NCBI GenBank assembly: GCA_029262635.1
Contig: JAJCZA010000022.1
Coordinates: forward strand, 58,222 to 122,221
Source: Vampirovibrionales bacterium
GTDB lineage: Bacteria > Cyanobacteriota > Vampirovibrionia > Vampirovibrionales > Vampirovibrionaceae
Reading direction: 5' to 3'
DNA: 64,000 bases
In this document: piece by piece, positions 2,483 to 29,383 of the stretch
Numbering within the stretch: position 1 is the first letter of the stretch
Layout: every line of letters starts with the position of its first letter
Program-made: the position numbers and the translations under genes
Notes under the pieces: model-generated
Database searches by the model: none
Told to the model about the DNA's origin: nothing
What the model saw: the letters and a program-made list of their open reading frames with translations, nothing else

Positions 2483-3088
2483 CTAGGTCGGAAAAACAGT
2501 AATGGCTTCCGGGTTTTCTGGACAGTGTTTTTGGCAGATCCCGCAGCCAGTGCAATCCTCACCCTGAACAAGAGGAAGCCCTTCTACCAGCTTAATGGCC
2601 TGCTCAGGAAGGGGGCAGACCTCATAACAGAGAGTACATTTAGAGCCTCGATAGGCTGTACACGTTAGCCGGTCGAGAACCGCAGTACCGACCTTGATTT
2701 GATTAATCGACTTTACCGGTAACAGGGCTTCTGTAGGGCAAGCCGTGATACAAGGGGTTCCTTCGCAAAGAAGGCAGGGGTGTTCTCGAAGGTTAACCAT
2801 TGCCGGCGTGCCATCAATAGCCTCTCCCGTCCCATAATGAACTGAAATGGCCTCATGAGGGCAGGCCATCGTACAGGCATCACATCGAGTACACAATGAG
2901 AGAAAGAGGGCTTCCATTTGAGCGCCAGGGGGACGAACAAAAGGCCGTTCTTTCAAGGGTTCGAGTACTTTTTCCGACTCCTTAAGCAAATGGCCCAGAA
3001 CCGACCGAAAACCATACTCGATAAACGATCGACGATCCACTCTTATCTCGGAGGTAAGCCTGTTAAGATCACGAAAACCATTACTCAT
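2483..3088 (-). CDS. 4Fe-4S poly-ferredoxin-type protein
   Basis: Four Cys clusters of the CxxCxxCxxxCP type (CTRCDACTMACP, CLLCEGTPCITACP, CTLCYEVCP, CTGCGICQKHCP). AAGGA RBS 5 nt upstream of the ATG on the minus strand. Confidence 0.75.
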   Translation of the reverse strand: MSNGFRDLNRLTSEIRVDRRSFIEYGFRSVLGHLLKESEKVLEPLKERPFVRPPGAQMEALFLSLCTRCDACTMACPHEAISVHYGTGEAIDGTPAMVNLREHPCLLCEGTPCITACPTEALLPVKSINQIKVGTAVLDRLTCTAYRGSKCTLCYEVCPLPEQAIKLVEGLPLVQGEDCTGCGICQKHCPENPEAITVFPT

Positions 3089-3108: not shown

Positions 3109-3127
3109 AAAGTGAAGTTAGAGAAAA
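3109..3127. repeat. 19-bp direct repeat copy 1 (AAAGTGAAGTTAGAGAAAA) upstream of tRNA-Arg
   Basis: Perfect 19/19 match with 3303-3321, read directly from the sequence. Confidence 0.9.
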
Positions 3128-3216
3128 ACCCTTAAAACCTTATTATTTACACCTTTTTTATAAAATTCTCTTTCAATTTCAACCAGCTTGTCCTAGAATA
3201 CCGTTCAAGAACCGAT

Positions 3217-3293
3217 GCGTCAGTAGCTCAGCTGGATAGAGTACTTGGCTTCGAACCAAGCGGTCGGGGGTTCGAATCCCTCCTGGCGTACCA
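3217..3293 (+). tRNA. tRNA-Arg (anticodon TCG), CCA encoded
   Basis: Cloverleaf read by hand: acceptor GCGTCAG/CTGGCGT (two G-U pairs), D-arm GCTC-AGCTGGATA-GAGT, anticodon stem CTTGG/CCAAG with loop CTTCGAA, T-arm GGGGG-TTCGAAT-CCCTC, terminal ACCA. Closely resembles E. coli tRNA-Arg(ACG) apart from the anticodon. Confidence 0.85.
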
Positions 3294-3302
3294 GTTCTTT
3301 AA

Positions 3303-3321
3303 AAAGTGAAGTTAGAGAAAA
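3303..3321. repeat. 19-bp direct repeat copy 2 downstream of tRNA-Arg
   Basis: Identical to 3109-3127. Confidence 0.9.
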
Positions 3322-3430
3322 TGTCCCGAGATCTTGAAGAAAGATTTATTGTAAAAAAGGGCTCGACTTAAAGAAAGCCCCTCTACTGCTCCCCAATTAG
3401 TTTAAATCGTTACTCTGCCCTACCCTATGT

Positions 3431-4177
3431 TTACCGAATCGAACACCGAACACCTTGGACTTGTAACTGCGACTTAACGTCATCCAATTCACTTCTTGAA
3501 AACGGTACGGCCCGCTTGGAAAAATCCGGATCAAGTAAATTGCCATTAACAAAGGGCTGAAGAATAAATCGTCCTTGAGGGGTTGTTGGCGAAACCCATT
3601 GCCCCATCTCAACCAAATCAGCCATGGTATGAAGGGGCCTAACTGCCGTCGTTCGGAATTCATAAGGAACACCCGATTGCTTGATTTGCCGAATGCTCTC
3701 CTCCAGTCGGGATTCCAGATGACTTGCTGACCCTTCATGACCTGTACCCGCAACCTGCTCATAATGCGCCAGTGGCATTTTAAAGTCCATGGCGATAAAG
3801 TCCACTAAGGACTGACTTAACACCTGTTTTAACACATCCGGACGACTACCATTGGTATCCAGCTTGGCTTTAAACCCCATAGCTTTCACCCGGTGTAAAA
3901 ACGGGATAAGCCCTTTTTGAAGAGTGGGCTCTCCCCCGCATAACACCACGCCATCCAAAACCGAGCGACGTTTTTCCAGAAAAGCGAACACACCTTCTTC
4001 GCTCCACTCGGTTACAGGCTTTGAATAGGCTCCCTGTTCGGCGGGAGGAAGCACCAGTTCTGGATTGTGACAGTAAGGACATCGGAAGTTACACCCTCGT
4101 GTAAACACCACTGCCGCCACACAGCCAGGGAAATCCGAAAACGAGTGCTTCAACAAGCCGCCAACCTGAAGGGTCAT
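3431..4177 (-). CDS. nrdG: anaerobic ribonucleoside-triphosphate reductase activating protein (radical SAM)
   Basis: CxxxCxxC radical-SAM motif (GCNFRCPYCHNPE) near the N-terminus. Translationally coupled to nrdD (4-nt overlap). Confidence 0.85.
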   Translation of the reverse strand: MTLQVGGLLKHSFSDFPGCVAAVVFTRGCNFRCPYCHNPELVLPPAEQGAYSKPVTEWSEEGVFAFLEKRRSVLDGVVLCGGEPTLQKGLIPFLHRVKAMGFKAKLDTNGSRPDVLKQVLSQSLVDFIAMDFKMPLAHYEQVAGTGHEGSASHLESRLEESIRQIKQSGVPYEFRTTAVRPLHTMADLVEMGQWVSPTTPQGRFILQPFVNGNLLDPDFSKRAVPFSRSELDDVKSQLQVQGVRCSIR

Positions 4178-6468
4178 ATGGCAACCTCAAACGGGCTCAG
4201 CTGTTCCAGTTCTGCTTCGTTCATGATCGATGTCAACGCGTAACCGCTATCCGGGTAAAACCAATCCGAGCTTTCCTGTGGGGTGTCATTGACCGAAAAC
4301 GTTTCCCGCAAGCCAAATTCCGCCCGTTTTCCATGGTTCCATTGTTTAACCGGCCGAAGATAGCCCACCACACGCGAGTAGACTTCCGCCTCTTCACCAC
4401 AGGTCGGACACTGGGGGTGCTGACCCGCTACATAGCCATGGGAAGGGCATACGCTAAATGTGGGGGTAACGGTAAAATAAGGGATTTCATAATTTTCACA
4501 CACGGTTTTAATAAACGAACGAACCGCATCTGAATCGCTAATTTCTTCACCGACAAAGACATGTGCCACCGTTCCTCCAGTGTACAGGGGTTGCAGGCGA
4601 TTTTGGTGATCCAGCGACTCAAAAATGTCATCCGTATAATTCACTGGCAAATGAGAGGAATTCGTATAAAACGGTTCGGAAGAGTAAGCCTCCTCATCAG
4701 AGGCCAGACCAGAGTTCGCAAAGGCAATATCAGGGTAACGTTTTTGATCCAGACGCGCCAGACGGTAGGCCGTCCCTTCAGCGGGTGTGGCTTCTAAATT
4801 ATACAGATTACCAGTTTCCTCCTGAAAATCCTGAAGCCGATCCCGCATAAACTCAAGCACCTCTTCTGCAAAACGAGCCCCTTCTTCATCGGCAATGGCT
4901 TTACCCAGTAAGTTCACACAGGCTTCATTCATCCCAACCAACCCAATGGTTGAAAAGTGATTATGCCAGTATTGCTCATAGCGTTTTAAAATGTCTCGCA
5001 AATAGAACTGGGTATACGGATACAGTCCTTTTTTCGTTAAACTTTCCAATATTTTTCGTTTAATTTCCAGACTGGTTTTCGCCATATCCATCAGCGCCGA
5101 CAACCGGTTAAAAAAGTCAGCCCGATCGGTTGATAAATAGCCAAGCCGAGGCAGGTTCATGGTCACCACGCCAATAGATCCCGTTAGCGGGTTGGCTCCA
5201 AACAGGCCGCCACCCCGACGATCCAGTTTTCGGGTGTCTAACCGAAGCCGACAACACATAGAGCGAGCATCCTCTGGCGACATGTCAGAATTCACAAAGT
5301 TTGCAAAGTACGCAATCCCGTATCGTGCAGTAACTTCCCATAACAGTTGCAGATTCGGGTTATCCCAGTCAAAATCTTTTCCCACATTATAGGTTGGGAT
5401 GGGAAAGGTAAAGACTCGTCCACGCGCATCGCCTTCTTTCATTACTTCCAGAAACGCTTGATTCAAGATATCCATTTCTGCCTGAAAATCGCCGTAGGTC
5501 TCGTTCTGATATTCGCCCCCAATAACCACGGGCTCACCTGCGTACATTTTAGGGACAATAAGATCCATAGTAATGTTGGTAAACGGCGTCTGAAATCCAA
5601 CCCGGGTCGGTACATTGACGTTAAACACAAATTCCTGAAGCGCCTGTTTTACTTCAGCATAACTGAGTTGATCGTACCGGATAAAAGGTGCGAGAAACGT
5701 GTCAAAATTAGCAAACGCTTGCGCCCCGGCAGCTTCACCCTGCAGCGTATAAAAGAAATTGACCATCTGGCCCAACGCCGTTCTGAAATGCTTGGCGGGC
5801 AAGCTTTCCGATTTTCCAGATGCTCCGGTAAACCCTTGGCGAAGCAGATCTTTTAAGTCCCAACCCACACAATAGACCGAGAGTTGATTCAAGTCGTGGA
5901 TATGCAAATCTCCTTCCTCATGAGCTTTTTTCACTTCGGCTGGATAAATTTTATTGAGCCAATAGGTCTTGCTCACCTCCGATGCGAGATAATTGTTTAA
6001 TCCCTGAAGCGAATAGGCCATATTACTGTTTTCATTTACCTGCCAATCAAGGCACTGCAAATAATCATCCACGAGATCCACCTGAGACGTGGAAACCCAC
6101 TGGCGCATGTTGGCATGTTGCTCTCGGTAGAGGATATAGGCTTTGGCAGTTTTTTTATACGGCGATTCTAGCAAAATAATTTCAACAATGTCCTGAATGG
6201 TTTCCACATCCGCCATGACAGGCCTTGTCTGCGTTTTTAACAGAAACAGCTGATTTTGCAAAATCGCCAGCGCTTTAATCACTAAGGTATTGGCGACTTT
6301 CTCGTCAAATTCGCCTGTGGCTTTTCCCGCTTTGATTAAGGCATTTAAAATTTTGTTGCTGTCAAACGGAACAATCTCACCATTTCTTTTTTTCACGTTG
6401 GAATTCATTAAACTCATATCGCTTGCACCTCTTTCTTTTTGCTCACTCAAAAGACCCAGCAAAATCAT
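4174..6468 (-). CDS. nrdD: anaerobic ribonucleoside-triphosphate reductase, class III, with N-terminal ATP-cone
   Basis: 764 aa. ATP-cone-like N-terminus (VKKRNGEIVPFDSNKI). Glycyl-radical C-terminus (RVVGYLRPVKQWNHGKRAEFGLRE) preceded by a Cys-rich Zn ribbon (CPSHG...CPTCG). Confidence 0.9.
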   Translation of the reverse strand: MILLGLLSEQKERGASDMSLMNSNVKKRNGEIVPFDSNKILNALIKAGKATGEFDEKVANTLVIKALAILQNQLFLLKTQTRPVMADVETIQDIVEIILLESPYKKTAKAYILYREQHANMRQWVSTSQVDLVDDYLQCLDWQVNENSNMAYSLQGLNNYLASEVSKTYWLNKIYPAEVKKAHEEGDLHIHDLNQLSVYCVGWDLKDLLRQGFTGASGKSESLPAKHFRTALGQMVNFFYTLQGEAAGAQAFANFDTFLAPFIRYDQLSYAEVKQALQEFVFNVNVPTRVGFQTPFTNITMDLIVPKMYAGEPVVIGGEYQNETYGDFQAEMDILNQAFLEVMKEGDARGRVFTFPIPTYNVGKDFDWDNPNLQLLWEVTARYGIAYFANFVNSDMSPEDARSMCCRLRLDTRKLDRRGGGLFGANPLTGSIGVVTMNLPRLGYLSTDRADFFNRLSALMDMAKTSLEIKRKILESLTKKGLYPYTQFYLRDILKRYEQYWHNHFSTIGLVGMNEACVNLLGKAIADEEGARFAEEVLEFMRDRLQDFQEETGNLYNLEATPAEGTAYRLARLDQKRYPDIAFANSGLASDEEAYSSEPFYTNSSHLPVNYTDDIFESLDHQNRLQPLYTGGTVAHVFVGEEISDSDAVRSFIKTVCENYEIPYFTVTPTFSVCPSHGYVAGQHPQCPTCGEEAEVYSRVVGYLRPVKQWNHGKRAEFGLRETFSVNDTPQESSDWFYPDSGYALTSIMNEAELEQLSPFEVAI

Positions 6469-6696
6469 CTTTCTCTTATTCTGTCGGAATCAATAACCCA
6501 CCTGTGTCGTCCCACGGATCGCTGATCAATTAAGCAACAATCTCATATACTACAGGTGGAAGATTATTATACAAACCAAAGCAACTCTTAGACAATTGCC
6601 TGTTCGGTTAGTACACTTGAGAGTAGTGGAATTTATCCGGTCAGTTTATAAAGCTTTAATGGCTCAAGACAAGACATTAGCAACAACCAAAACAAC

Positions 6697-18562: not shown

Positions 18563-19267
18563 ATGATATTTAAAGGACGCGTAAGTAACGACGGCGATGG
18601 CATGATGATTGCCACCCGAGGCATGCTGGCGACGGTAAAACAAATAGAAACCCACACCACCAACATCGCTCACTTTGGCTTACCAGGGTACCAACGTAAA
18701 GAGGCGGTGGTCACATCGTTTGTTGAACACCTGGGCGCCAATGCCGTAGACGAAGTGGTCAGTACCGAGATTGGCCGTATCCGTAAAAGTAACAACCCAC
18801 TAGACTTTGCCTTACGGCACCCAGGCTACTTTCAGCATATGAACACTTCCGGCTCGATCGAGCTAACACGAGACGGCCGAATGAAGCTGGACAAAGACGG
18901 CAATCTGCTCTCGTTAGCAGGCCATAAAATTTTATCCGACGGTGGCTCGCCTATACAATTTACGTTTATCCCGAAAAATCCAGACCGGGATATTACCGTA
19001 TCCGCTGACGGCGAGATTAAAGTATTTCACGTAAAAACCCAGCAAATGGTGAACATGGGACGCATTGGCGTGGTCAGCCAAACCGGCACCATTGCCGACA
19101 AGGTAGATATTCGCCAAGGGCACGTCGAAGATTCCAACGTGTATCTGCAACAGGAATTTACCCGAGTGGTTCCCTTGCGACGCCAGTTTGAAGCCAACCG
19201 GCAAATTTTTATCACCCAAAGCGACGTCCTCTCCCGAACCATTCAGGAACTGGGACGACCTCAGTAA
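18563..19267 (+). CDS. flgF: flagellar basal-body rod protein FlgF-like
   Basis: N-terminal rod motif (TNIAHFGLPGYQRKE) and the C-terminal rod-family helix (SNVYLQQEFTRVVPLRRQFEANRQIFITQSDVLSRTI). Confidence 0.75.
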   Translation: MIFKGRVSNDGDGMMIATRGMLATVKQIETHTTNIAHFGLPGYQRKEAVVTSFVEHLGANAVDEVVSTEIGRIRKSNNPLDFALRHPGYFQHMNTSGSIELTRDGRMKLDKDGNLLSLAGHKILSDGGSPIQFTFIPKNPDRDITVSADGEIKVFHVKTQQMVNMGRIGVVSQTGTIADKVDIRQGHVEDSNVYLQQEFTRVVPLRRQFEANRQIFITQSDVLSRTIQELGRPQ

Positions 19268-19308
19268 CCTATTTAGCGTTTTAAATCTTCTGTAAGGAGA
19301 ACCCCGTT

Positions 19309-20019
19309 ATGCTACACCACATTATGAAATTTTCCGCCGACGCGGCCAATATGCAGTTTGATGTTCTGGATCGGGTCACACAAAACGTCGCGAATTTGAA
19401 CACCAATGGCTACAAAATCAAGCGATTTGATCAATACATGCGAAGCGATGGTGTGGTTAGCGGGGTTGAGCGGTTTGATTATACCCAGGGTTCCATTATG
19501 GTTACTCGCCGTCAGTTGGATGTGGCCTTAAAAGGTGAGGGGTTTATTCCCGTCACCCAACCCGACGGGCAAATTGCCTTTACCCGAGACGGTAGTTTTA
19601 CTCGAAACAGTGATGGGCTGATTATTACCAATCACGGCGATATTGTCGGCGATGGCATTCAACTGCCCGTAAACTACAAAAAAATCATCATTACAGAAAA
19701 CGGTGAAGTGAAAGTCCAACTTGATAACAAACTGGAACCGGAACAACTCGGTCAAATTAAACTGGTCAATTTTGCAAACCCGGAAGGACTGGAGTCCATT
19801 GGCCAAAATAAGCTGGTTGCCACGGAAAAATCGGGTGAAGCCGTGCCCATGACCGACGAGATGACCCAATTCAAACAAGGAGCACTGGAACGATCTAACG
19901 TCAACGTGTTTGCCCAGATTGATCAGGTCTTACGCCTAAATGCGGGACTGCTCTCTAATATGAAAATCGTGAAGTTCACAGATGACGTGTACCGACAGGC
20001 CACTAACCTGAAACAGTAA
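19309..20019 (+). CDS. flgG: flagellar distal rod protein FlgG
   Basis: NVANLNTNGYK N-terminal motif and SNVNVFAQIDQVLRLNAGLLSNMKIVKFTDDVYRQATNL C-terminal motif. Confidence 0.8.
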   Translation: MLHHIMKFSADAANMQFDVLDRVTQNVANLNTNGYKIKRFDQYMRSDGVVSGVERFDYTQGSIMVTRRQLDVALKGEGFIPVTQPDGQIAFTRDGSFTRNSDGLIITNHGDIVGDGIQLPVNYKKIIITENGEVKVQLDNKLEPEQLGQIKLVNFANPEGLESIGQNKLVATEKSGEAVPMTDEMTQFKQGALERSNVNVFAQIDQVLRLNAGLLSNMKIVKFTDDVYRQATNLKQ

Positions 20020-20051
20020 CTTGAACCCCCTATAAAAAAGAGGATAACAAC

Positions 20052-20402
20052 ATGGATCCTTTCGGAAAATTTAACCCCATCAGCAATGTACTTAATGCCA
20101 TTTCCAGTAATCAGAAACTGGTTTCTGGCAATGTTGCCAATGCCCATACACCCGGCTACACAGCTAAATCAACCACGTTTTCTCAATTGCTTTATAACCA
20201 ACACAGCCCGTTTGAAACAACGATGTCCAAGAAAATGGGTTCATCACTTCAGCCGCTGGGCACCATGGAAACCGGTGAAACGGTCAACATGAAACACGAG
20301 ATGATTACAATGCAGAAAAATATGTTGTTCTATAGCATGACCACCCGACGGGCGGCCTCAATTTTTAATATGCTCAGAACATCCAGCCAAATCGGGAGGT
20401 AA
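20052..20402 (+). CDS. flgB: flagellar proximal rod protein FlgB
   Basis: SGNVANAHTPGYTAK motif. 116 aa. Confidence 0.8.
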   Translation: MDPFGKFNPISNVLNAISSNQKLVSGNVANAHTPGYTAKSTTFSQLLYNQHSPFETTMSKKMGSSLQPLGTMETGETVNMKHEMITMQKNMLFYSMTTRRAASIFNMLRTSSQIGR

Positions 20403-20409
20403 TGGATAG

Positions 20410-20856
20410 ATGACACTTCAAAGCTCACTGGGCATAGCCGCACAAGGGCTCGACGCCGCTGGCGAACGGATGACTATCCATGCCAACAATATCGCCAACC
20501 TAACGACACCCAACTATCAACGAAAAATTCCTGTTCTCATGGAGAACAACGAAATGTCGTTTGAGAACATCATGGCACAAATGCGCAATGGCGTGATTCA
20601 AACCGGCATTAGTACGTCTCCCGGCGGGGTTCATATGGCAGGCTCCATTGCCGATAGCACGCCGGGGAAGCGAGTTTACAACCCAGGACACCCGGAAGCG
20701 GACAAAGACGGATTCGTTCAAGCCTCTAATGTCAATGTGTTAGCCGATATGTCAGATTCACTCTCCACTCAACGGGTCTACGAAGCGAATCTAGCGGTTA
20801 TTAGCATGGTAAAAGCCATGGCCAACCGGGCACTTGAAATCGGTCGAGGCCAATAA
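20410..20856 (+). CDS. flgC: flagellar proximal rod protein FlgC
   Basis: ANNIANLTTPNYQRK motif and C-terminal RVYEANLAVISMVKAMANRALEIGR. 148 aa. Confidence 0.85.
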   Translation: MTLQSSLGIAAQGLDAAGERMTIHANNIANLTTPNYQRKIPVLMENNEMSFENIMAQMRNGVIQTGISTSPGGVHMAGSIADSTPGKRVYNPGHPEADKDGFVQASNVNVLADMSDSLSTQRVYEANLAVISMVKAMANRALEIGRGQ

Positions 20857-20909
20857 GAGAGCCACTCATTTACTAACTAAAATAAAATACAAAGGAATTC
20901 CCCATCCCC

Positions 20910-21593
20910 ATGATGATTCAAGGCCCATCGCTATCTACCAGTTTTGCTCAATTAAAGGCCGGCGGCGGTATTAACGCGGTTGAAGGCCGGATGCAACAAC
21001 TGGAAATGATGATTAAAGCGGTAGAAGGGAATCGACAACAAACACCGATTTCCTTCAAGGCACAGCTTAATCAAGCTGCCCATCAACCGACTTTTACCTC
21101 AACCCTTCATGGCGTCGTTACGGATCAGATTCCCGGTGGCGCTCCAGTGCCTCCCCGATTCCCTGTCTCGTCGACTGCAACCATGTCTAAAAGCATGCGC
21201 GAGCGGATGGCTGTGTTACAGCCCCATATTACTGAATACAGTCAAAAATATGGGGTGGATAGTGCGCTGGTTAATGCGGTAATTCGACAGGAATCTGGGT
21301 TTAATCCGAATGCGGTTTCTAAAGCCGGTGCGCAAGGCCTAATGCAGTTAATGCCCGCCACAGCCAAAGGGTTGGGTGTAACGAATTCTCTGGATCCGAT
21401 CCAGAATCTGGACGGCGGTATTCGCTATCTAAAAAGCAAGCTTGATATGTACAACGGTAATGTTCCCCTGGCGCTAGCTTCCTACAACGCAGGTTCCGGT
21501 GCTGTTAAAAAATACAACGGGATTCCGCCGTATAAGGAAACTCAAAATTACGTAAAGTCAATTCTAACAGCTTACTTAAAAGAAAAAGCCTAA
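20910..21593 (+). CDS. flagellum-associated soluble lytic transglycosylase (SLT domain, SltF-like) with a roughly 110-aa N-terminal domain of unknown function
   Basis: SLT catalytic region ...IRQESGFNPNAVSKAGAQGLMQLMPATA...SYNAGSGAV (catalytic Glu in the ES motif). Sits between flgC and fliE. Confidence 0.75.
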   Translation: MMIQGPSLSTSFAQLKAGGGINAVEGRMQQLEMMIKAVEGNRQQTPISFKAQLNQAAHQPTFTSTLHGVVTDQIPGGAPVPPRFPVSSTATMSKSMRERMAVLQPHITEYSQKYGVDSALVNAVIRQESGFNPNAVSKAGAQGLMQLMPATAKGLGVTNSLDPIQNLDGGIRYLKSKLDMYNGNVPLALASYNAGSGAVKKYNGIPPYKETQNYVKSILTAYLKEKA

Positions 21594-21628
21594 AACAAGT
21601 TTAACCTCTGTAAAAAAGGACAAACATC

Positions 21629-21964
21629 ATGAATAATGGCTATATCCCCAAATTATCTCTCCCCACCCGAAACCCGGTTTCCATAAGCAATCCCATGTTT
21701 AACCCCGGAACACAGGGTGCCAATCCATTTGGCTCAGTGAATAAAACGTCGTTTAAAGATGTTATGCTCGACACGGTGGGCAAGGTTAATGATACCCTGG
21801 CAAAACCGGATACCATGATGATGGAAACCATTACCAATGGTACTCACGATGTTCACGATGTCATGTTGGCAGGAGCCAAAGCAGAGTTAACCATCACCAT
21901 TGCGGCTCAGTTAACCACTAAAGTAGTTCAGGCTTATGATCGAATTTTACAAATTCAGGTGTAG
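21629..21964 (+). CDS. fliE: flagellar hook-basal body complex protein FliE
   Basis: 111 aa. FliE-like helical sequence SFKDVMLDTVGKVNDTLAKPDTMMMETITNGTHDVHDVMLAGAKAELTITIAAQLTTKVVQAYDRILQIQV. Confidence 0.7.
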   Translation: MNNGYIPKLSLPTRNPVSISNPMFNPGTQGANPFGSVNKTSFKDVMLDTVGKVNDTLAKPDTMMMETITNGTHDVHDVMLAGAKAELTITIAAQLTTKVVQAYDRILQIQV

Positions 21965-22174
21965 CATTCAGGATTGGTTTACTCCCCCGTTCAGTGGGGT
22001 TCCTAAAGATAAGATCCTCTATGGAACCGATACGAAACCCGCTGTCCTTTAATATTATAGGAATAGGTCTAATTAATATTGCCGTAAAGCTGATTATCCG
22101 GAAAAATCAGCGTTTATGGGTACAATAAAAATAGAGAATCAAAATCAAGGGAATTAACTCAAGGAAGACCATTC

Positions 22175-23887
22175 GTGGCAAACCCCGTTCAAACTATTGT
22201 GGGACAGATCCAACAAAACCGTATGTTGGCTATTGGCTTGGCTGTAGCCGTAGTTTTGATTCTGGCGATTGGTGGTTTTATGCTCTTTTCTGGTGGTGGA
22301 AAAAGTAACGAAACCGGCGGAAAAAGCTGCAACAGACCACTGGATAAAGACCAGAAAAAGTTTGCCATGAAAGTCTCGCCTATTGGTAAAGCGGTGGAAA
22401 TACAAGCGCTTTTAGCCTCGGCCGGGATTACTCTGAATCGGGTGGACGACGATACAGGGAAAAAAGCAGATTTGAGCTTTGCGGATGGAACGACCCTTTG
22501 CCAAAGGGATACAGCCTTGATTTCTGTAGCCCAGTCGGGACTGCTTGATAAAAATATTGGACTGGAAATTTTTGAAAAAGGCGATCTAACGGCATCTCGC
22601 GAAGAAAAGCGAATTAAGCTAGTTCGGGCGCAACAGGGCGAGTTGGCCCGGCTCATTCGAAAACTAGATACCATTTCTGATGCGACGGTCAGTTTTTCCA
22701 TTCCAGAACACTCCATTTTTACCAAACAACAAAAAGCCATGTCCGTTACGGTTCAGGTCCGCACAAAAAACGGGGAACGTTTGACTCGGGATAAAGTGCG
22801 CACAGTTATTAATCTGGTAGTAGGAAGTGTTCAACAGGTAGACGCGCAACATGTGGCCTTATCCGACACCAACGGAAACACGTACAACAGTGTACTGGAC
22901 GCCTCCAGCGAATTTGGCCATAAAATGGAAGAGCGAGATCTCTACATGCGGGATAAAGTGGCCCGCCAGCTCAACCGATTAAGCGGCGTAGGCAATTACG
23001 TCGTTACCGTCAGCACCCAGCTTCGGGAAGAGGCGCAGGAAGTGATGACTCAAAGCTTTGATCCTAACGAGTCAGTGGTTTCTACACGACAGCGGTTTTC
23101 AGAAAATTTAAACGCCCGCTCCGGTAATGCTGGTTTATCCGGTGGTCCGGCGAGTGGCTTTGTACCCAACGAGCTAAAAACATCCACTTCGGGTCAAAGT
23201 TCATCGAACCGGGGCTATCGCCGGGAAGGTGAGGAAATCAGCTATGCCAACACCAAAACCCAGAAAATGGAAACCCGTATGCCAGGGATGATTGAGGATA
23301 TCTCCATTGCCGTAACTCTGGATGAAGATCATTTTCCTAAAGTGGTATTGGATACAGGCGAAAAAGTGGACATGGACACACGGGAACTCCAACGGCTAAT
23401 TGCCCGTTCGGCTAGCCCACGAGTAAACCCGAGCAACGTCAGCATTGCCCGAATCAGTTTTGGCAAAAGTTCGGCCACTCCCATTCAAAAGACTTCGGAA
23501 AACGTAGCCACCAAAGAACCTGTCGATTATATGCCTTATGCTGTCGGTGCGGTTTTGGTCATGCTGGCTTTTCTCCTATTCATGTTTCGGGGGACGTCAA
23601 AAGATCCCAAGGCAGAGCTCAATGAACAGGAGATTCAACGACTTCAAGAAGTCGCCAACCAACAGCAACAACAACTTCAGGCAACACAACAACAAACTCA
23701 ACTGCTTATGGAGGCACAACAGCAACAGTTATCCGATCCCACGACAGACAATGCAGGCAGTTTAGCTGGAGGTACTGAAGTTGGCTTACAGCAAACGCTA
23801 GGCGAAATTAAAGAGGTTATTGAGGAAGAGGAACTGGATGATGAAGAAATTGATTCGCAAATCCGAAGCTGGATTGAGTCTTCTTAA
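22175..23887 (+). CDS. fliF: flagellar MS-ring protein FliF
   Basis: 570 aa with GTG start. N-terminal TM, RBM/YscJ-like periplasmic region, second TM near the C-terminus, then an acidic C-terminal FliG-binding tail (EEEELDDEEIDSQIRSWIESS). A Gln-rich low-complexity stretch precedes the tail. Confidence 0.9.
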   Translation: MANPVQTIVGQIQQNRMLAIGLAVAVVLILAIGGFMLFSGGGKSNETGGKSCNRPLDKDQKKFAMKVSPIGKAVEIQALLASAGITLNRVDDDTGKKADLSFADGTTLCQRDTALISVAQSGLLDKNIGLEIFEKGDLTASREEKRIKLVRAQQGELARLIRKLDTISDATVSFSIPEHSIFTKQQKAMSVTVQVRTKNGERLTRDKVRTVINLVVGSVQQVDAQHVALSDTNGNTYNSVLDASSEFGHKMEERDLYMRDKVARQLNRLSGVGNYVVTVSTQLREEAQEVMTQSFDPNESVVSTRQRFSENLNARSGNAGLSGGPASGFVPNELKTSTSGQSSSNRGYRREGEEISYANTKTQKMETRMPGMIEDISIAVTLDEDHFPKVVLDTGEKVDMDTRELQRLIARSASPRVNPSNVSIARISFGKSSATPIQKTSENVATKEPVDYMPYAVGAVLVMLAFLLFMFRGTSKDPKAELNEQEIQRLQEVANQQQQQLQATQQQTQLLMEAQQQQLSDPTTDNAGSLAGGTEVGLQQTLGEIKEVIEEEELDDEEIDSQIRSWIESS

Positions 23888-24052
23888 GAGAAATAACGTA
23901 TTGGCTTCTCTAATTTTTTTATTAAAAAACAGGCCAAAAGGATGAACAGGCAAAGAATATAGGCTAATATAATAAAAAGAGCAATTCCGTTTTTAAGGGC
24001 GGTTTTTCCAATTTAAAAGAACGTTTTAAAGGTAAAAAGAGAGAAAGAGCAA

Positions 24053-24682
24053 ATGACCATTCACGAACTTCAGGGCGAACAACTGGCAGAAACTTGGCGT
24101 GACCGGGTTGTAAAACGAATGGAAGCAAAAGACGCTTCATCAGAAGAGATTGAAGAATCGGCGTTTATTATTTATAACCTATCCAAAGCGGTGGTTGAGT
24201 CACTTAAAAGTGAGCCCACAATCCAGTTACCAGGCCGTGCTGAAACGTTAATCCTGGATAGAGAGGAAGGGGAATTTATTCTGGAGTTGTTTGTGCGAAG
24301 TATTCTAAATATGACCAACCAACTACGGGAAGTTCAAGCCACTGTAGAAATGGACTGGGATAGCCGAAAAAATGTGCTGGAACAGGCCGCCTGGGAAGTC
24401 TTAATTCTTTCCAAGATCGTATTCGCCAGTTCTAAATTACCAGGAAAAGCTCAGATACTTTTGAAAAGCGAAGAAGACATGTTTCTGATCATGCGAAAAA
24501 GCACGGACGAAATTCTAAAACGTCATTTACCGAAAGGAGCCAGCTTAAGAAAAAAAGCAGAAATGACGCTAGCAGGCGGCACCAGTTTAACGAAATTTGA
24601 GATGGCCTCTAGAACCGCAGTCGCTTTGTACAAATCCTTTCAGGACCAATTAGGTTTATCGTCTGATGGAGGGAAAAAGTAA
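24053..24682 (+). CDS. hypothetical soluble protein in the fliF-fliH interval
   Basis: 209 aa, helical, no motif I can assign. Sits where fliG is normally found. Confidence 0.5.
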   Translation: MTIHELQGEQLAETWRDRVVKRMEAKDASSEEIEESAFIIYNLSKAVVESLKSEPTIQLPGRAETLILDREEGEFILELFVRSILNMTNQLREVQATVEMDWDSRKNVLEQAAWEVLILSKIVFASSKLPGKAQILLKSEEDMFLIMRKSTDEILKRHLPKGASLRKKAEMTLAGGTSLTKFEMASRTAVALYKSFQDQLGLSSDGGKK

Positions 24683-24685
24683 TTT

Positions 24686-25219
24686 ATGGCCGAAACGGGT
24701 CACATTGAAGGATTTTCACCAGAAAGCGTGATCTCAAAGTTGATTCAACGCTATACGGAGCGCTTGAAAAAATCGCCTCTCTCGCCTGAAGATCAAGCTG
24801 GTATTGTTGACTTAATGTCTCAATTTACCGAAATTGCGTCACAACTCATTGCCCAACAACAGGAAGATATTTTGGTTCAGGGCGAAGCCCCGCCGAAAGA
24901 AAGAAAACCTTTACCCTTTGATGGACCACGAGCCCGGCAAGCCATGTTTTTATTTTCCGATGCGGTGTATTACACGTTAATCAAATGTCATAAAATGAAA
25001 ATCCCAAAGGAACTACATATCCAGTTTTCTCAACAAGTGGCACAACAAGTCTTCGAGGAAGCTAAACGACTGATTTTAACAGTGCACTATGAACAATCGG
25101 ATATGTCGAAAAAAGATCAAATTCAATTTATGAATCAGACCGCCCTCAAGTCACTGCGTTATTTTGTGGGTGAGTATAAAAAACAGGCCGAAACGGAAAG
25201 CGGAGGTAATGTTTCATGA
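24686..25219 (+). CDS. hypothetical protein, novel domain (paralogous to the N-terminal half of the next gene)
   Basis: 177 aa. Shares collinear motifs with 25216-26364: SPEDQA...QF..IA.Q, MFLF...VYY..LK, QVF...K.L.L., QI.[FY][MV]NQTA...L.Y[FY]V.EY.K. Confidence 0.5.
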   Translation: MAETGHIEGFSPESVISKLIQRYTERLKKSPLSPEDQAGIVDLMSQFTEIASQLIAQQQEDILVQGEAPPKERKPLPFDGPRARQAMFLFSDAVYYTLIKCHKMKIPKELHIQFSQQVAQQVFEEAKRLILTVHYEQSDMSKKDQIQFMNQTALKSLRYFVGEYKKQAETESGGNVS

Positions 25220-26364
25220 CCGACGCTCCCCAGATACCACCTGTTTCTTTACAACCTATTGACGGATTTAACCCGGAACAGGTGATCCTCGAATTAGGCC
25301 AACGCTTTGAAGTCAAACTGAAAAAAGAATCTCTTTCTCCTGAGGATCAAGCTTATTTACTTGGATTCATTAACCAATTTGCCCAGATTGCTGCTCAGCA
25401 AATTCTGGAACAACGAATGATTGAAGTACCCCCCGAGGCCTCACGTGAAGGGTTCTCGTCCCTTCCTTATACCGGCGTAAGCGCAGGGCAGACCATGTTC
25501 CTTTTTTGCGAAGGGGTTTACTACGCCGTACTCAAAGGCTGGAAAATGGGTTTGCCTCAAGATTTCCATACCCAGCTAGCTGGCAGCGTTGCCCAACATG
25601 TGTTTGATACAACGAAACAACTGGTTTTGTCGACCCAGGGACAGGAACTGACGCCAGAATATCAGATTACTGAAGAACAGCAGATTGCCTATGTAAACCA
25701 AACGGCCGAAAGTGCCTTGCTTTACTATGTTAATGAGTATGAAAAGACCAATGGGCCATTTAACCCAGAGGAACGAGTCGTTGAAGAGGAGCTAGAGGCT
25801 CCTGAAATAGTAACCGATGAACCAAGGGTTGAAGCCAAGCCATTACCACCACAGCCCGTCCAATCAAACGTTCCGGCAGGAAGCCGGGAGCAACATACAA
25901 AATATGCGGCGTTGGCTTTGCTCTTAACCACATTGAAACCTAGTCAACAACAGAAAATTTTTCAGCAATTTACACCCGAAGAGCAGCAGGTTATGAATTA
26001 TTACGCCTTACCGCAAAATGTAGAGCGGGTGCTGGACATTCATCAGGTAACCGAACATCTGATGAAGCTAAAGAAGCAAATTAAAGCCGATCATACCTCC
26101 ATAGCATCCCGCTCAATGGCTAATCGAGCGATTGAGGAAATGACTCAGGTTTATCCAAAGGAAAACCTAATCGCCTATGTGAACCATGAACGGCCCAAAA
26201 TAAAAAAATATCTTGAATCATCTTTTGCAACAACGGATAAGATGGACCCCATGTCACTTTTTACTGCGACAGACGAAACTCAAAACGAAGCAAAAGACGA
26301 CCAGAGTTTGTCATCAAAAGTTGAGTCGGTTCTTCATCGCTTTCTGTCACAACAGGTGAGTTAA
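25216..26364 (+). CDS. two-domain hypothetical protein: N-terminal copy of the novel domain plus a C-terminal region resembling the FliG N-terminal / MgtE-N helical domain
   Basis: The N-terminal 190 aa parallel the previous ORF. The C-terminal segment AALALLLTTLKPSQQQKIFQQFTPEEQQVMNYYAL resembles the FliG-N start (AAILL.SLGPE.AA.V.K.L..EE...L). No FliG middle or C-terminal torque motifs are present. Confidence 0.5.
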   Translation: MTDAPQIPPVSLQPIDGFNPEQVILELGQRFEVKLKKESLSPEDQAYLLGFINQFAQIAAQQILEQRMIEVPPEASREGFSSLPYTGVSAGQTMFLFCEGVYYAVLKGWKMGLPQDFHTQLAGSVAQHVFDTTKQLVLSTQGQELTPEYQITEEQQIAYVNQTAESALLYYVNEYEKTNGPFNPEERVVEEELEAPEIVTDEPRVEAKPLPPQPVQSNVPAGSREQHTKYAALALLLTTLKPSQQQKIFQQFTPEEQQVMNYYALPQNVERVLDIHQVTEHLMKLKKQIKADHTSIASRSMANRAIEEMTQVYPKENLIAYVNHERPKIKKYLESSFATTDKMDPMSLFTATDETQNEAKDDQSLSSKVESVLHRFLSQQVS

Positions 26365-26389
26365 TGCCCCAAAAGGGAATCATTAGAAA

Positions 26390-27094
26390 ATGATCATTAA
26401 ACGAAACAAAGCCAATCAAACCCAGTCCTCTAACCTCTCTAGCGACGGGAAAAATGCCAGTGAAACGGACCAGAGCCAGTCTCTTAACTGGACTCAGGAT
26501 AATCTGGAAAAAGGATTGGTTCAGGAGCGTCGCATGGGGCCCCGTGAAAATCGCCGAGACGGGTTTCGACGATTGGAAGATAAGAACTTAATCAGCCGGG
26601 CTCACGAAGAGGCCAACGCCATTCGGGAAAACGCTAAACGGGAAGGCTTTGAAGAAGGGTTAGACGAAGCACAGGAAGAAATTCAGCACTTAAAAAAGGT
26701 TTTGGAAGAACTCATGATTTCCCGTGAAACCGTGCTGGAGTCAGTGGTCGATGATATTGCCCCCATTGCGGTCGAAATTGCCGAACGAATTATCAAGACC
26801 GAAGTGGCGTGCGACGATGAGTTGATTATGGGCATTGTCAACGACACCCTGCAAAAAGTTAGCCGAAAAACAAAAAGTATTTTGATTAAGATTCATCCAG
26901 AAGATGTATCTCTGGTCAAAGAAAATTTAAAAGCCAATCCAATCCCTAATATGGATGCTGAAATTATGGTCATGGATGATCCGGTCGTGGATCGAGGAAG
27001 CTGCATTGTAGAGACCAACAGCGGCCTCATTGACGCGTCGTTTTCAACCCGAATAGAAATTTTGAAGAAACTGTTTGGCACGAACTCACCCTGA
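26390..27094 (+). CDS. fliH: flagellar export ATPase regulator FliH-like (FliH/SctL family)
   Basis: Central charged coiled coil (ISRAHEEANAIRENAKREGFEEGLDEAQEEIQHLKK) followed by a FliH C-terminal-like domain. Located immediately before flhA. Confidence 0.6.
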   Translation: MIIKRNKANQTQSSNLSSDGKNASETDQSQSLNWTQDNLEKGLVQERRMGPRENRRDGFRRLEDKNLISRAHEEANAIRENAKREGFEEGLDEAQEEIQHLKKVLEELMISRETVLESVVDDIAPIAVEIAERIIKTEVACDDELIMGIVNDTLQKVSRKTKSILIKIHPEDVSLVKENLKANPIPNMDAEIMVMDDPVVDRGSCIVETNSGLIDASFSTRIEILKKLFGTNSP

Positions 27095-27256
27095 AAAAAT
27101 AAAATTAAGAAAAGCAACCCTGAATTGAGACTCAATTCAAATACTATTTAAAGCAGATGTTTTTTTAAAAGAAGTAAGACAAAATAAAACGTAAGAGAAC
27201 GTGATTGGGTTTAACGGGTTTTAAAAAACCCAGAGAAAGAAACAAAAGGAGAGTCG

Positions 27257-29383
27257 GTGGCACACCCTCAGGCACCACAACAGCAACAAGGCGGCGGACA
27301 AGCCTTTTCCATGCCGCCTCTAACAGAAGTCCTTCTGGCGTTTCTGGTTCTTGGACTTGTCCTGATTATTATTATGCCGCTTCCGGCCTGGATGATTGAC
27401 GGCATTATCTCCATGAACGTGTCTCTTGGCATCATCCTCCTAATGATGTCCCTCTACGTCGAGAAAGCACTGGATATGGCAGCATTTCCCTCGATTATTG
27501 TTGTCGGCACCATGATGCGGCTAGCCTTAGGGATTGCCACCACCCGATCCATTTTAGCCAACGGCATGGCTGGGGACATGGTCGAGGCCTTCGGGAACTT
27601 CGTAACCGGAGGAAACCTGATTGTCGGGGCGGTGGTCTTTATCATCATTACCATTGTTCAGTTTATGGTAATTACCAAGGGTTCCGAGCGTATCGCAGAA
27701 GTTGGCGCCCGATTTGCCCTGGACGCTATGCCGGGAAAGCAAATGACTATTGATGCGGATTTTAACTCTGGGCTGATTTCTCCAGAAGAAGCCATTAAAC
27801 GACGAGAAGACCTCCAACGAGAATCCGCTCTCTACGGCTCCATGGATGGTGCCATGAAATTCGTCAAAGGAGATTCCATTGCCGGTATTATCATTACCAT
27901 CATCAACATTATTGGTGGGTTAAGCATCGGAATGGGCATGAAAGAACTAGCCTTTGACGAGGCCATTAGCAAATATACACTATTAACCATCGGAGATGGT
28001 TTGGCCGCCCAGATTCCCGCTCTGCTGATGGCCATTGCGTCCGGTTTGATGATGACCCGTTCTACGGCATCTGGCACCAGTTTGGGTAAAGACCTTTTTG
28101 AACAGGTTCAAAGCAAGCCTTATGGTTTGATTTTCTCCGCGATTTTTCTCGCCGTCATTGTCGCAACAGCAAGCTATACTGGTTTAGCCTGGTGGGCGTT
28201 TTTAATTGTTGTTTTCATTCTTGTCGGGATTGCTTTTAGTGTGTTTCTCGCCACAGACGTTCAGCAACAATTGGGCCAATTAGAACAAACCAAACAGAAC
28301 ATGTCGGAACTGATTAACCCGAACCGAATGTATGAAAAGCTAGGCGTCGACGTCTTAAGTCTTCAGGTCGGTAATGATCTGCTGAGAATCGCTGACCCTG
28401 AGCAAGAGGGCCAACTACTGGGTAAAATTGCCGGATTACGCTCTCGCCTAACCGACGAGCTTGGTTTTATTCTCCCCAACGTCCGAATTATGGACAGCTT
28501 GAGTTTGGGCCCTCAAGAGTACTTAATTTCCATCCGGAATAACCCGGTAGCCACAGGAAACGTCTATCCTGATCGGTATATGATTACCAGCGCTCTATTT
28601 GAGTCGGTTGGCCTCCAGCCCCCAGAGGGTGCGATGCGAGATAAAGACCCGACTTATGGCACTGACGCTTACTGGTTACTGCCCGATGAAATTCCGACCG
28701 AACTCCAGGATAGAGCGATTGAAGCGACAGATGCCATTATCGCCCACCTGGCCGAAGTGGTTATTAAGTATGTGGATGATGTGATGACAAAAATGGACGT
28801 ACTGAAGCTAATGGAGCTGGTACGTCAGCAGGATCAGTCTCTGGTTCAGGAATTGGTTCCCTCCATTGTAACGCCCAACGACTTGCGTAAGATTTTCGTT
28901 AACCTGATTCAGGAAAAAGTCTCTATTAAAGATATTATGTTTGTTTTTGAACGCTTGAGCGACTATGCCCGCTTTAGCAAAGAGCCTGATGTCCTTTCTG
29001 AACGGCTCCGGGCGGCATTAGGCCGACAAATCTGCTTGAACAATTCAGAAAATAAAACCATGTACGCCGTCACCCTATCCAATGACTGGGAAAAAATGCT
29101 CGATGACAGTTGTCAGCGAACCGAGCTAGGCACCATGTTCCTGCTAAATCCACTTCAGGTTCAGGAACTGATTGAAACGACCGCAGAAACACTGCGTTCC
29201 GTTCAGGACTCTTATAACCGGATGCCCGTCGTCCTTTGCTCGCCCCGAATCCGATTGCCATTATATCAATTACTGGATCGTCATATTCCCATGGTGGTCG
29301 TCATGTCTTATAGCGAACTAATTCCAGAAATTCAAGTGCAAGCCGTTGGAGCCATTGGCGGCGGTGGCATGGATGACCTATAA
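27257..29383 (+). CDS. flhA: flagellar export gate protein FlhA (FlhA/SctV family)
   Basis: 708 aa. Conserved FHIPEP region (ITKGSERIAEVGARFALDAMPGKQMTIDAD, FVKGDSIAGIIITIINIIGG) and a cytoplasmic C-terminal domain. Confidence 0.95.
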   Translation: MAHPQAPQQQQGGGQAFSMPPLTEVLLAFLVLGLVLIIIMPLPAWMIDGIISMNVSLGIILLMMSLYVEKALDMAAFPSIIVVGTMMRLALGIATTRSILANGMAGDMVEAFGNFVTGGNLIVGAVVFIIITIVQFMVITKGSERIAEVGARFALDAMPGKQMTIDADFNSGLISPEEAIKRREDLQRESALYGSMDGAMKFVKGDSIAGIIITIINIIGGLSIGMGMKELAFDEAISKYTLLTIGDGLAAQIPALLMAIASGLMMTRSTASGTSLGKDLFEQVQSKPYGLIFSAIFLAVIVATASYTGLAWWAFLIVVFILVGIAFSVFLATDVQQQLGQLEQTKQNMSELINPNRMYEKLGVDVLSLQVGNDLLRIADPEQEGQLLGKIAGLRSRLTDELGFILPNVRIMDSLSLGPQEYLISIRNNPVATGNVYPDRYMITSALFESVGLQPPEGAMRDKDPTYGTDAYWLLPDEIPTELQDRAIEATDAIIAHLAEVVIKYVDDVMTKMDVLKLMELVRQQDQSLVQELVPSIVTPNDLRKIFVNLIQEKVSIKDIMFVFERLSDYARFSKEPDVLSERLRAALGRQICLNNSENKTMYAVTLSNDWEKMLDDSCQRTELGTMFLLNPLQVQELIETTAETLRSVQDSYNRMPVVLCSPRIRLPLYQLLDRHIPMVVVMSYSELIPEIQVQAVGAIGGGGMDDL

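Follow-up and report, generated by a model that had tools for sequence, protein, structure and literature searches.

A perfect 19-bp direct repeat around a tRNA-Arg gene of a Vampirovibrio-like bacterium: a candidate relic of an integrated element and its young local duplicate

The DNA analyzed here, a window of 64,000 nucleotides from a Vampirovibrionales genome, carries two perfect copies of a 19-bp sequence, AAAGTGAAGTTAGAGAAAA, in direct orientation on either side of a tRNA-Arg(TCG) gene. The explanation that we favor, and to which we give slightly better than even chances, is that the locus holds the remnant of an element that integrated at a recombination hotspot beside the tRNA gene, together with a young local duplicate of 19 bp. 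The copy located 3′ of the tRNA (copy 2) would belong to the remnant, and the copy on the ferredoxin side (copy 1) would be the duplicate. What appears to be unusual at this locus is that a block of backbone genes ending in nrdG now adjoins an old tRNA/ferredoxin pair; the tRNA probably did not enter an operon. The features of the locus are listed in Table 1.

Table 1. Features of the tRNA-Arg locus, in window positions (a dot in the strand column marks the repeat copies)
Feature	Position	Strand	Basis and remarks
NapG/MauM-like ferredoxin gene	2483-3088	-	201 aa, four Cys clusters; divergent from tRNA, convergent with UDG gene
19-mer copy 1	3109-3127	.	Between ferredoxin gene and tRNA promoter; 20 nt to ferredoxin ATG (3088)
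Putative tRNA promoter	3171-3199	+	-35 TTTCAA, 17-nt spacer, -10 TAGAAT; assigned by resemblance to consensus
tRNA-Arg(TCG) gene, encoded CCA	3217-3293	+	ARAGORN; Rfam RF00005, 65.6 bits
tRNA 3′ flank, GTTCTTTAA	3294-3302	+	Common to window, L007 and L010
19-mer copy 2	3303-3321	.	Starts 9 nt past tRNA 3′ (CCA) end; 109 nt beyond nrdG stop
Remnant ORF, 16 codons (MSRDLEERFIVKKGST*)	3321-3371	+	First 11 nt, ATGTCCCGAGA, match the tRNA-abutting ORF of L010 at its start
Predicted intrinsic nrdG terminator	3353-3381	-	GGGGCU stem, AGCCC, then U6; from fold of minus-strand RNA and sequence
nrdG, anaerobic RNR activase gene	3431-4177	-	Pfam Radical_SAM and Fer4_12; homologues named NrdG; convergent with tRNA
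nrdD, anaerobic ribonucleotide reductase gene	4174-6468	-	Pfam NRDD 3e-204 and ATP-cone; overlaps nrdG by 4 nt

Exactly two copies of the 19-mer are present on the plus strand, and a third is absent from the 64-kb window even when up to three mismatches are allowed (0.03 expected). The flanks of the two copies are unrelated, with identity ending at both edges of the 19-mer. In a census, across the whole window, of all exact direct repeats that are 12 nt or longer and no more than 1 kb apart, the 19-mer was the longest and the runner-up measured 15 nt. In 200 first-order Markov simulations, the longest repeat of this type never exceeded 17 nt. The census and the simulations together indicate that the repeat is real and non-random. 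The first-pass annotation, which had described perfect 19-bp direct repeats flanking a tRNA-Arg(TCG) and considered them unlikely to arise by chance, is thus upheld on both points, and ARAGORN and Rfam both identify the tRNA at 3217-3293 on the plus strand. It had, however, placed the second copy over the 5′ UTR of the ferredoxin gene, which exchanges the two: the copy in the 5′ region of the ferredoxin gene is copy 1, and copy 2 lies past the tRNA. The 19-mer begins with AAA and ends with AAAA, and the final base of copy 2 is the A of the ATG of the remnant ORF. Copy 1 is placed 175 bp from copy 2, and one repeat with the promoter and the tRNA makes up a unit of 194 bp.

A scan of viral contigs with the 19-mer gave two matches, both within AT-rich coding regions of phages and without a tRNA there, which were judged to be due to chance. 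Viral contig scans with the tRNA flank and with a pattern of the 19-mer plus the ORF start returned no matches.

The repeat might in principle be an artifact, produced by a chance match or by a chimeric assembly in which two genomes of the sample were joined across a tRNA common to both, and this is highly improbable. Chance is excluded by the counts given above, and each copy is present on its own contig in the independent Logan assembly of run SRR15505515. The two Logan contigs (L001 and L015) both end at position 3253 in the anticodon loop and overlap by 1 nt, and the join across the tRNA comes from the MAG assembly alone. Logan assemblies are, to our understanding, k=31 graphs, and a break at 3253 would be expected of such a graph if a second tRNA in the sample shared the 59-nt core 3224-3282 and had a different acceptor stem. 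In addition, a single contig from a different metagenome (L010, described below) carries the ferredoxin gene on one side of an identical tRNA and a homologous flank on its right. The GC content is alike on the two sides of the tRNA (45.2% and 45.4%), and both sides are similarly diverged from the same relative genome.

To place the locus among its relatives, a large protein search was made with the window ferredoxin. The closest orthologues are 75% (P0002), 69% (P0003) and 68% (P0004) identical and the rest 63% or less; a scan of a species-representative genome collection with the same protein gave only distant relatives of 26-38% identity. The contigs of the three closest relatives are referred to here as L007, L010 (the same as L016, SPJJ01050276.1) and L008. 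In all three, a tRNA-Arg gene is divergent from the orthologous ferredoxin gene, at a distance of 132 nt in L007, 387 nt in L010 and 107 nt in L008, compared with 128 nt in the window. The promoter block, CTTGTCCTA-AAT, is unchanged in the alignment of all four genomes (window, L007, L008 and L010) except for one base of the -10 hexamer. On the other side of the ferredoxin gene, synteny with the UDG gene is kept in L007, L008 (with one extra gene between), L010, L012 and L019, and the long L008 contig continues the synteny through 7TMR-HD, YbeY and DAGK. No tRNA was found upstream of the ferredoxin in L012, L013, L020-L023 and L025, where identity is 57%-63% and the upstream region is readable, nor on the L019 and L024 contigs, which barely reach upstream of the gene. 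The L008 genome (JBDIVN) has been classed as Cyanobacteria, family Vampirovibrionaceae (PMC11465946), and on this classification the clade formed by the window and its three relatives is Vampirovibrio-like or Vampirovibrionaceae-like. The divergent tRNA-Arg/ferredoxin pair is old and ancestral in this clade.

The tRNA genes at this position are not all the same. The window tRNA-Arg is identical in sequence to that of L010. Its acceptor stem, as read from the letters of 3217-3293, contains two G-U wobbles, at 1-72 and 4-69. In the L007 tRNA, the 3′ strand of the acceptor is unchanged but the 5′ strand differs, so that the second wobble is found at 5-68. At the orthologous position of the Vampirovibrionaceae MAG JBDIVN (L008, 5817-5893), with the same promoter block and again divergent from the ferredoxin gene, the tRNA-Arg has the anticodon ACG instead of TCG; it is about 84% identical to the TCG tRNA, counted by hand from the alignment. 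The ACG anticodon represents either an anticodon switch or the replacement of the gene at a conserved locus.

These comparisons bear directly on the proposal of the first-pass annotation, in which an existing nrdD-nrdG-ferredoxin operon received a tRNA segment, with the 19-mer as the target-site duplication. The tRNA is indeed bracketed exactly by the direct repeats, and nrdD, nrdG and the ferredoxin gene share a strand, but such an insertion now seems very hard to sustain. When the nrdG-ferredoxin junction was looked for in related genomes, as that annotation had suggested, the tRNA turned out to be present in L007, L008 and L010, all without the 19-mer pair and none with nrdG or nrdD adjacent to the tRNA. 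The tRNA/ferredoxin pair would then predate its adjacency to nrdDG, genes that the nearest relative has at another place. Between the repeats (3128-3302) there are only the promoter and the tRNA; neither terminal inverted repeats nor a mobility gene was found. The usual target duplications of transposases are 2-14 bp, and 19 bp is longer. Moreover, a duplication as old as the juxtaposition could not remain 19/19 while the spacer diverged fully. The notion of a footprint of insertion or recombination thus survives broadly, as a rearrangement scar, and the synteny of the relatives speaks against its specific form, a tRNA inserted into an operon with a target-site duplication.

The operon itself is doubtful, and nrdDG is more plausibly a unit of its own. 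The predicted nrdG terminator precedes copy 2 in the direction of nrdG transcription, and a promoter-like site, TTGTCT-18-TATAAT, was found by eye upstream of nrdD. The ferredoxin gene is parted from nrdG by a gap of 342 nt, which holds both the tRNA gene on the opposite strand and this terminator. Nor is the gene order conserved: no nrdG was found upstream of the ferredoxin in any fetched locus that reaches upstream. It is on these grounds, the terminator, the promoter-like site, the gap with its opposing tRNA and the synteny, that the nrdD-nrdG-ferredoxin operon of the first-pass annotation is questioned. The 5′ leader of nrdD (6484-6552, minus strand) contains, downstream of TTGTCT-18-TATAAT, an 8-nt inverted repeat, CCACCTGT ... 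ACAGGTGG. The inverted repeat has no Rfam match and no NrdR box and may be a regulatory leader structure.

The DNA located 3′ of the tRNA is variable. The neighboring gene is nrdG in the window, a 90-aa ORF in L007 and an HTH/recombinase-like ORF in L010; in L008, about 700 nt of non-coding DNA are followed by a peptidase gene. Because the 3′ neighbor differs in all four genomes, this position is likely to be a hotspot of rearrangement or recombination. The genes nrdD and nrdG adjoin the tRNA/ferredoxin pair in this genome only, among the four examined. In GCA_029262655.1, the MAG of the nearest relative (L007), they are found on a different contig (L014), between a fatty-acid desaturase gene and scdA. 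The proteins encoded there are the closest matches to those of the window (NrdD 86% and NrdG 59% identical). The 3′ flank of nrdG has no visible homology to L014. To the right of nrdDG, the window continues as backbone rather than as an island, with secA, the ATP synthase (atp) operon and the genes of the flagellar rod, FliF and FlhA. The flagellar cluster (18563-29383; rod proteins, FliF and FlhA) adjoins the ATP synthase operon and would fit a motile Vampirovibrio-like organism.

The relationship of copy 2 to the relatives is informative. Identity among the window, L007 and L010 extends across the 3′ end of the tRNA and the adjoining GTTCTTTAA, and homology with L007 ends exactly at that point. 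Beyond GTTCTTTAA only the window and L010 are alike, with 19/22 bases in common between GTGAAGTTAGAGAAAATGTCCC and GTAAAGTAAGAGAAAATGCCCC. The local alignment of the two reaches a score of 29, against 13.3 ± 2.2 in shuffled sequences, of which 0/2000 attain 29; L007 and L008 score at chance level against the copy-2 module. The L010 counterpart of copy 2, TAGGTAAAGTAAGAGAAAA, occupies the same position and matches at 15/19, with 4/19 positions different. Since the module, that is, the 19/22 match and ATGTCCCGAGA, is shared with L010 at a point where L007 homology has stopped, copy 2 is probably the older of the two copies. The module was found in this one relative only, and a metagenome scan with the tRNA 3′ end and its flank returned the L010 contig alone.

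In L010, the module leads directly into an ORF, ATGTCCCGAGAC..., MSRDMPPKESEEWLGLKVASELYGYSRKTLLRWCKG.... The window keeps the first four codons of an ORF of this type (MSRD, ATGTCCCGAGA), after which the reading frame comes to a dead end in the nrdG terminator; no further similarity to the L010 ORF was detected anywhere in the 64-kb window. The Pfam matches of the L010 ORF are all below the cutoffs (Phage_int_SAM_1, E=0.014; HTH_28, E=0.017; HTH_17, E=0.06). It is laid out as an N-terminal HTH, a core-binding-like segment and a 'KKPQRVYPVRKTSLRPEEFKRWL' linker, which in our reading weakly suggests the N terminus of an integrase. For the first 216 aa, no homologue was found in a search of 5.8 billion proteins, in PHROGs, in NCBIfam, among PDB sequences or, by tblastn, in phage genomes. 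Over the next 89 residues (217-305), the ORF matches the middle portion of proteins from an unrelated 460-aa family (P0198 and relatives) at 91% identity. That family has no Pfam domain and is rich in Ala and Arg, which seems to set it apart from the remainder of the ORF. As these residues belong to an unrelated family, the L010 contig appears to be chimeric beyond about residue 216 of the ORF (nt 1-268 of the contig). We infer that the ORF is a recombinase gene and that an integrated element accounts for the module; copy 2 is then best read as a relic of the leader or of an attachment arm of an element that was once present at the tRNA and has mostly been deleted since.

Two further observations concern these sequences. 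In L010 (900-945), the ORF start is flanked by a direct duplication of 8 bp, ATGCCCCC-ATGTCCCGAGAC-ATGCCCCC, a further instance of small local duplication within the module. In the window, the only recombinase gene seen (62984-63841; Phage_integrase 2e-44, Phage_int_SAM_1 3e-16) follows a PilT-like T2SSE ATPase gene. We read it as a recombinase of the XerC/D type rather than the integrase of a mobile element, and a BLASTP comparison of its product with the L010 ORF was not significant.

The presence of a recombinase-like ORF start against copy 2, both in the window and in L010, also raises the question of whether the 19-mers are attL/attR-like sites. The 194-bp unit would then have been inserted recently, or have replaced the resident tRNA, as a recombinase-delimited and perhaps excisable cassette. 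In geometry, the locus corresponds to an integrated segment bounded by direct repeats of att-like length, and identity between the window and L010 is 100% for the tRNA but only about 70% for the ferredoxin. Homology with the unoccupied type of site (L007) ends right after the tRNA and GTTCTTTAA, as an att core would predict. We nevertheless regard this explanation as unlikely. The tRNA with the same promoter is already at the site in relatives that lack the repeat, and the 19-mer, which contains no tRNA sequence and encloses nothing but the tRNA and its promoter, differs in this from the classical att sites of tRNA genes. On inspection, the 19-mer has none of the internal dyad symmetry expected for the core site of a tyrosine recombinase. 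No fragment of the tRNA was found elsewhere in the 64 kb, and no intact recombinase gene is nearby, the only one of the window being that at 62984-63841. Both Logan contigs pass through their 19-mer unbranched, with no sign of heterogeneity in the population. A stronger version, in which the 19-mers are live sites, the tRNA-Arg and its promoter form an excisable cassette of 194 bp, and the tyrosine recombinase is encoded elsewhere in the genome or has been lost, is considerably less probable still. If it were true, the locus would be a minimal "tRNA gene cassette," an element of a kind that, to our knowledge, has not been described in bacteria. The junctions of such an active pair would read CTAGCGAAAAC-19mer-TGTCCCGAGA at the empty site and GTTCTTTAA-19mer-ACCCTTAAAA in the circle.

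For copy 1, no recognizable counterpart exists at the corresponding position of L007, L008 or L010. An inverted match (17/24) and a direct match (11/14) in L010 were considered as equivalents of copy 1 and rejected, as both are at the level of chance for AT-rich DNA and one is inside a coding ORF. The ferredoxin-tRNA spacers of the window, L007, L008 and L010 have no significant mutual similarity. With the spacers diverged beyond recognition, and with the copy-2 module itself changed at four positions in L010, a pair that still matches at 19/19 has to be young. Copy 1 must, on this comparison, be lineage-specific and much younger than the juxtaposition of the tRNA and the ferredoxin gene.

Perfect identity amid unrelated flanks could also be the result of selection. 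The 19-mers would in that case be two binding sites of one protein, either a regulator of the divergent promoters or a lost recombinase with arm-type sites, and selection or gene conversion could in principle hold two functional sites identical. Copy 1 is located in the divergent promoter region, where it overlaps a weak promoter-like sequence, TAGAGA-16-TATTAT, and the position of copy 2 is partly conserved in L010. This explanation, too, we consider doubtful. Copy 1 occurs in none of the three relatives, and copy 2 is likewise missing from L007 and L008, which nevertheless possess the same promoter and gene pair; nothing is conserved at the TAGAGA-16-TATTAT sequence. That copy 2 is conserved in L010 can be put down to its position as the leader of an ORF, and in the window that ORF is dead. 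The 19-mer itself is no palindrome, and the NrdR box (the 16-bp palindrome acaCwAtATaTwGtgt) has no match in the window with up to three mismatches. At the level of RNA, Rfam detects only the tRNA at the locus down to E=1, and folds around the 19-mer are no more stable than those of shuffled sequence (z = 0.55 and -0.09). On the minus strand, the centroid structure leaves the 19-mer unpaired; on the plus strand, the 19-mer pairs only weakly, with the A/U-rich sequence beside it. The first-pass annotation had offered a duplicated regulatory or processing element as its alternative. Conservation lends this no support, copy 1 being without a counterpart in the relatives, and what is left of it is a possible role for the two copies as a pair. 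No function is required or demonstrated for the 19-mers.

How a young copy 1 could have arisen in the setting of an element remnant has to be considered separately. Duplication of a target site or an att site needs inserted DNA between the repeats. Here the DNA between them, the promoter and the tRNA, is the conserved part. We infer that copy 1 was produced by a short templated copy during repair or replication (template switch, filler DNA) or by duplication and deletion in two steps. The idea of a templated patch is suggested by the A-runs at the ends of the 19-mer, together with the lack of a better single-step route.

The sequence of events that we favor would be as follows. The old pair of tRNA-Arg(TCG) and divergent ferredoxin gene stays in place, while the DNA just 3′ of the tRNA recombines. 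An element integrates at the tRNA, with a left end formed by the module (the 19-mer and the start codon) that leads an ORF resembling HTH proteins and tyrosine recombinases, as in L010. A deletion or rearrangement then strips away all but four codons of the ORF and brings the backbone block secA-nrdD-nrdG next to the tRNA, and copy 2 remains as the relic of the element's leader or attachment arm. Very recently, during the remodeling of the locus, copy 2 would have been duplicated into the ferredoxin-tRNA spacer to give copy 1. The most likely route is a templated patch or template switch in repair, for which the A-runs may have served as microhomology, or the two-step route, in which the 194-bp unit would first be duplicated in tandem and one tRNA copy would then be lost.

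The locus can be compared with several known systems. Tyrosine-integrase elements reportedly integrate at the 3′ ends of tRNA genes and leave behind integrase pseudogenes and att fragments. Like the degenerate islands and prophage remnants found at tRNA genes, the locus is variable in the tRNA 3′ flank, has a recombinase-like ORF abutting the tRNA in one relative, retains only the first ORF codons in the window and loses homology with an "empty" relative a few bases past the tRNA. It differs from them in that the window repeat contains no tRNA sequence and brackets the tRNA rather than an island, that the integrase identity of the L010 ORF is below threshold and that no second island end is found in the window. 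With the target-site duplications of transposons it has in common a short perfect direct repeat immediately flanking a discrete segment. In contrast to these, the segment has no inverted ends or transposase and is present at the same site in relatives free of the repeat, and the repeat measures 19 bp.

A parallel for copy 1 may be offered by templated (filler) or template-switch duplications. These likewise involve a short tract in direct orientation, with a source a few hundred bases away and no flanking homology; here, in addition, homopolymer microhomologies bound the 19-mer and the locus is visibly rearranged. The difference is that the mechanism is deduced in the present case from genomes without the ancestral, pre-insertion sequence. 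The arm-type integrase sites of attP (lambda-like P and P′ arms) are similar in being short repeated sites on both sides of a core, here one that contains the tRNA, next to the start of a recombinase gene. However, the left side in the window is chromosomal ferredoxin DNA, the repeat is 19 bp compared with about 10 bp, and the sites are known here from sequence alone.

The locus also offers a caution in the reading of bacterial genomes. Genes on the same strand around a tRNA do not necessarily form an operon, and a perfect repeat on both sides of a segment is not necessarily a target-site duplication. The 19-bp pair would matter more only if it were an active substrate of recombination. If the favored explanation of an element remnant with a young duplicate is true, the locus would be a small worked example of a tRNA gene that serves as a long-lived breakpoint. 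Across the clade, the tRNA and the gene upstream of it would have stayed fixed while everything 3′ of the tRNA was exchanged, with a few codons of an element gene and a stray short duplicate left behind.
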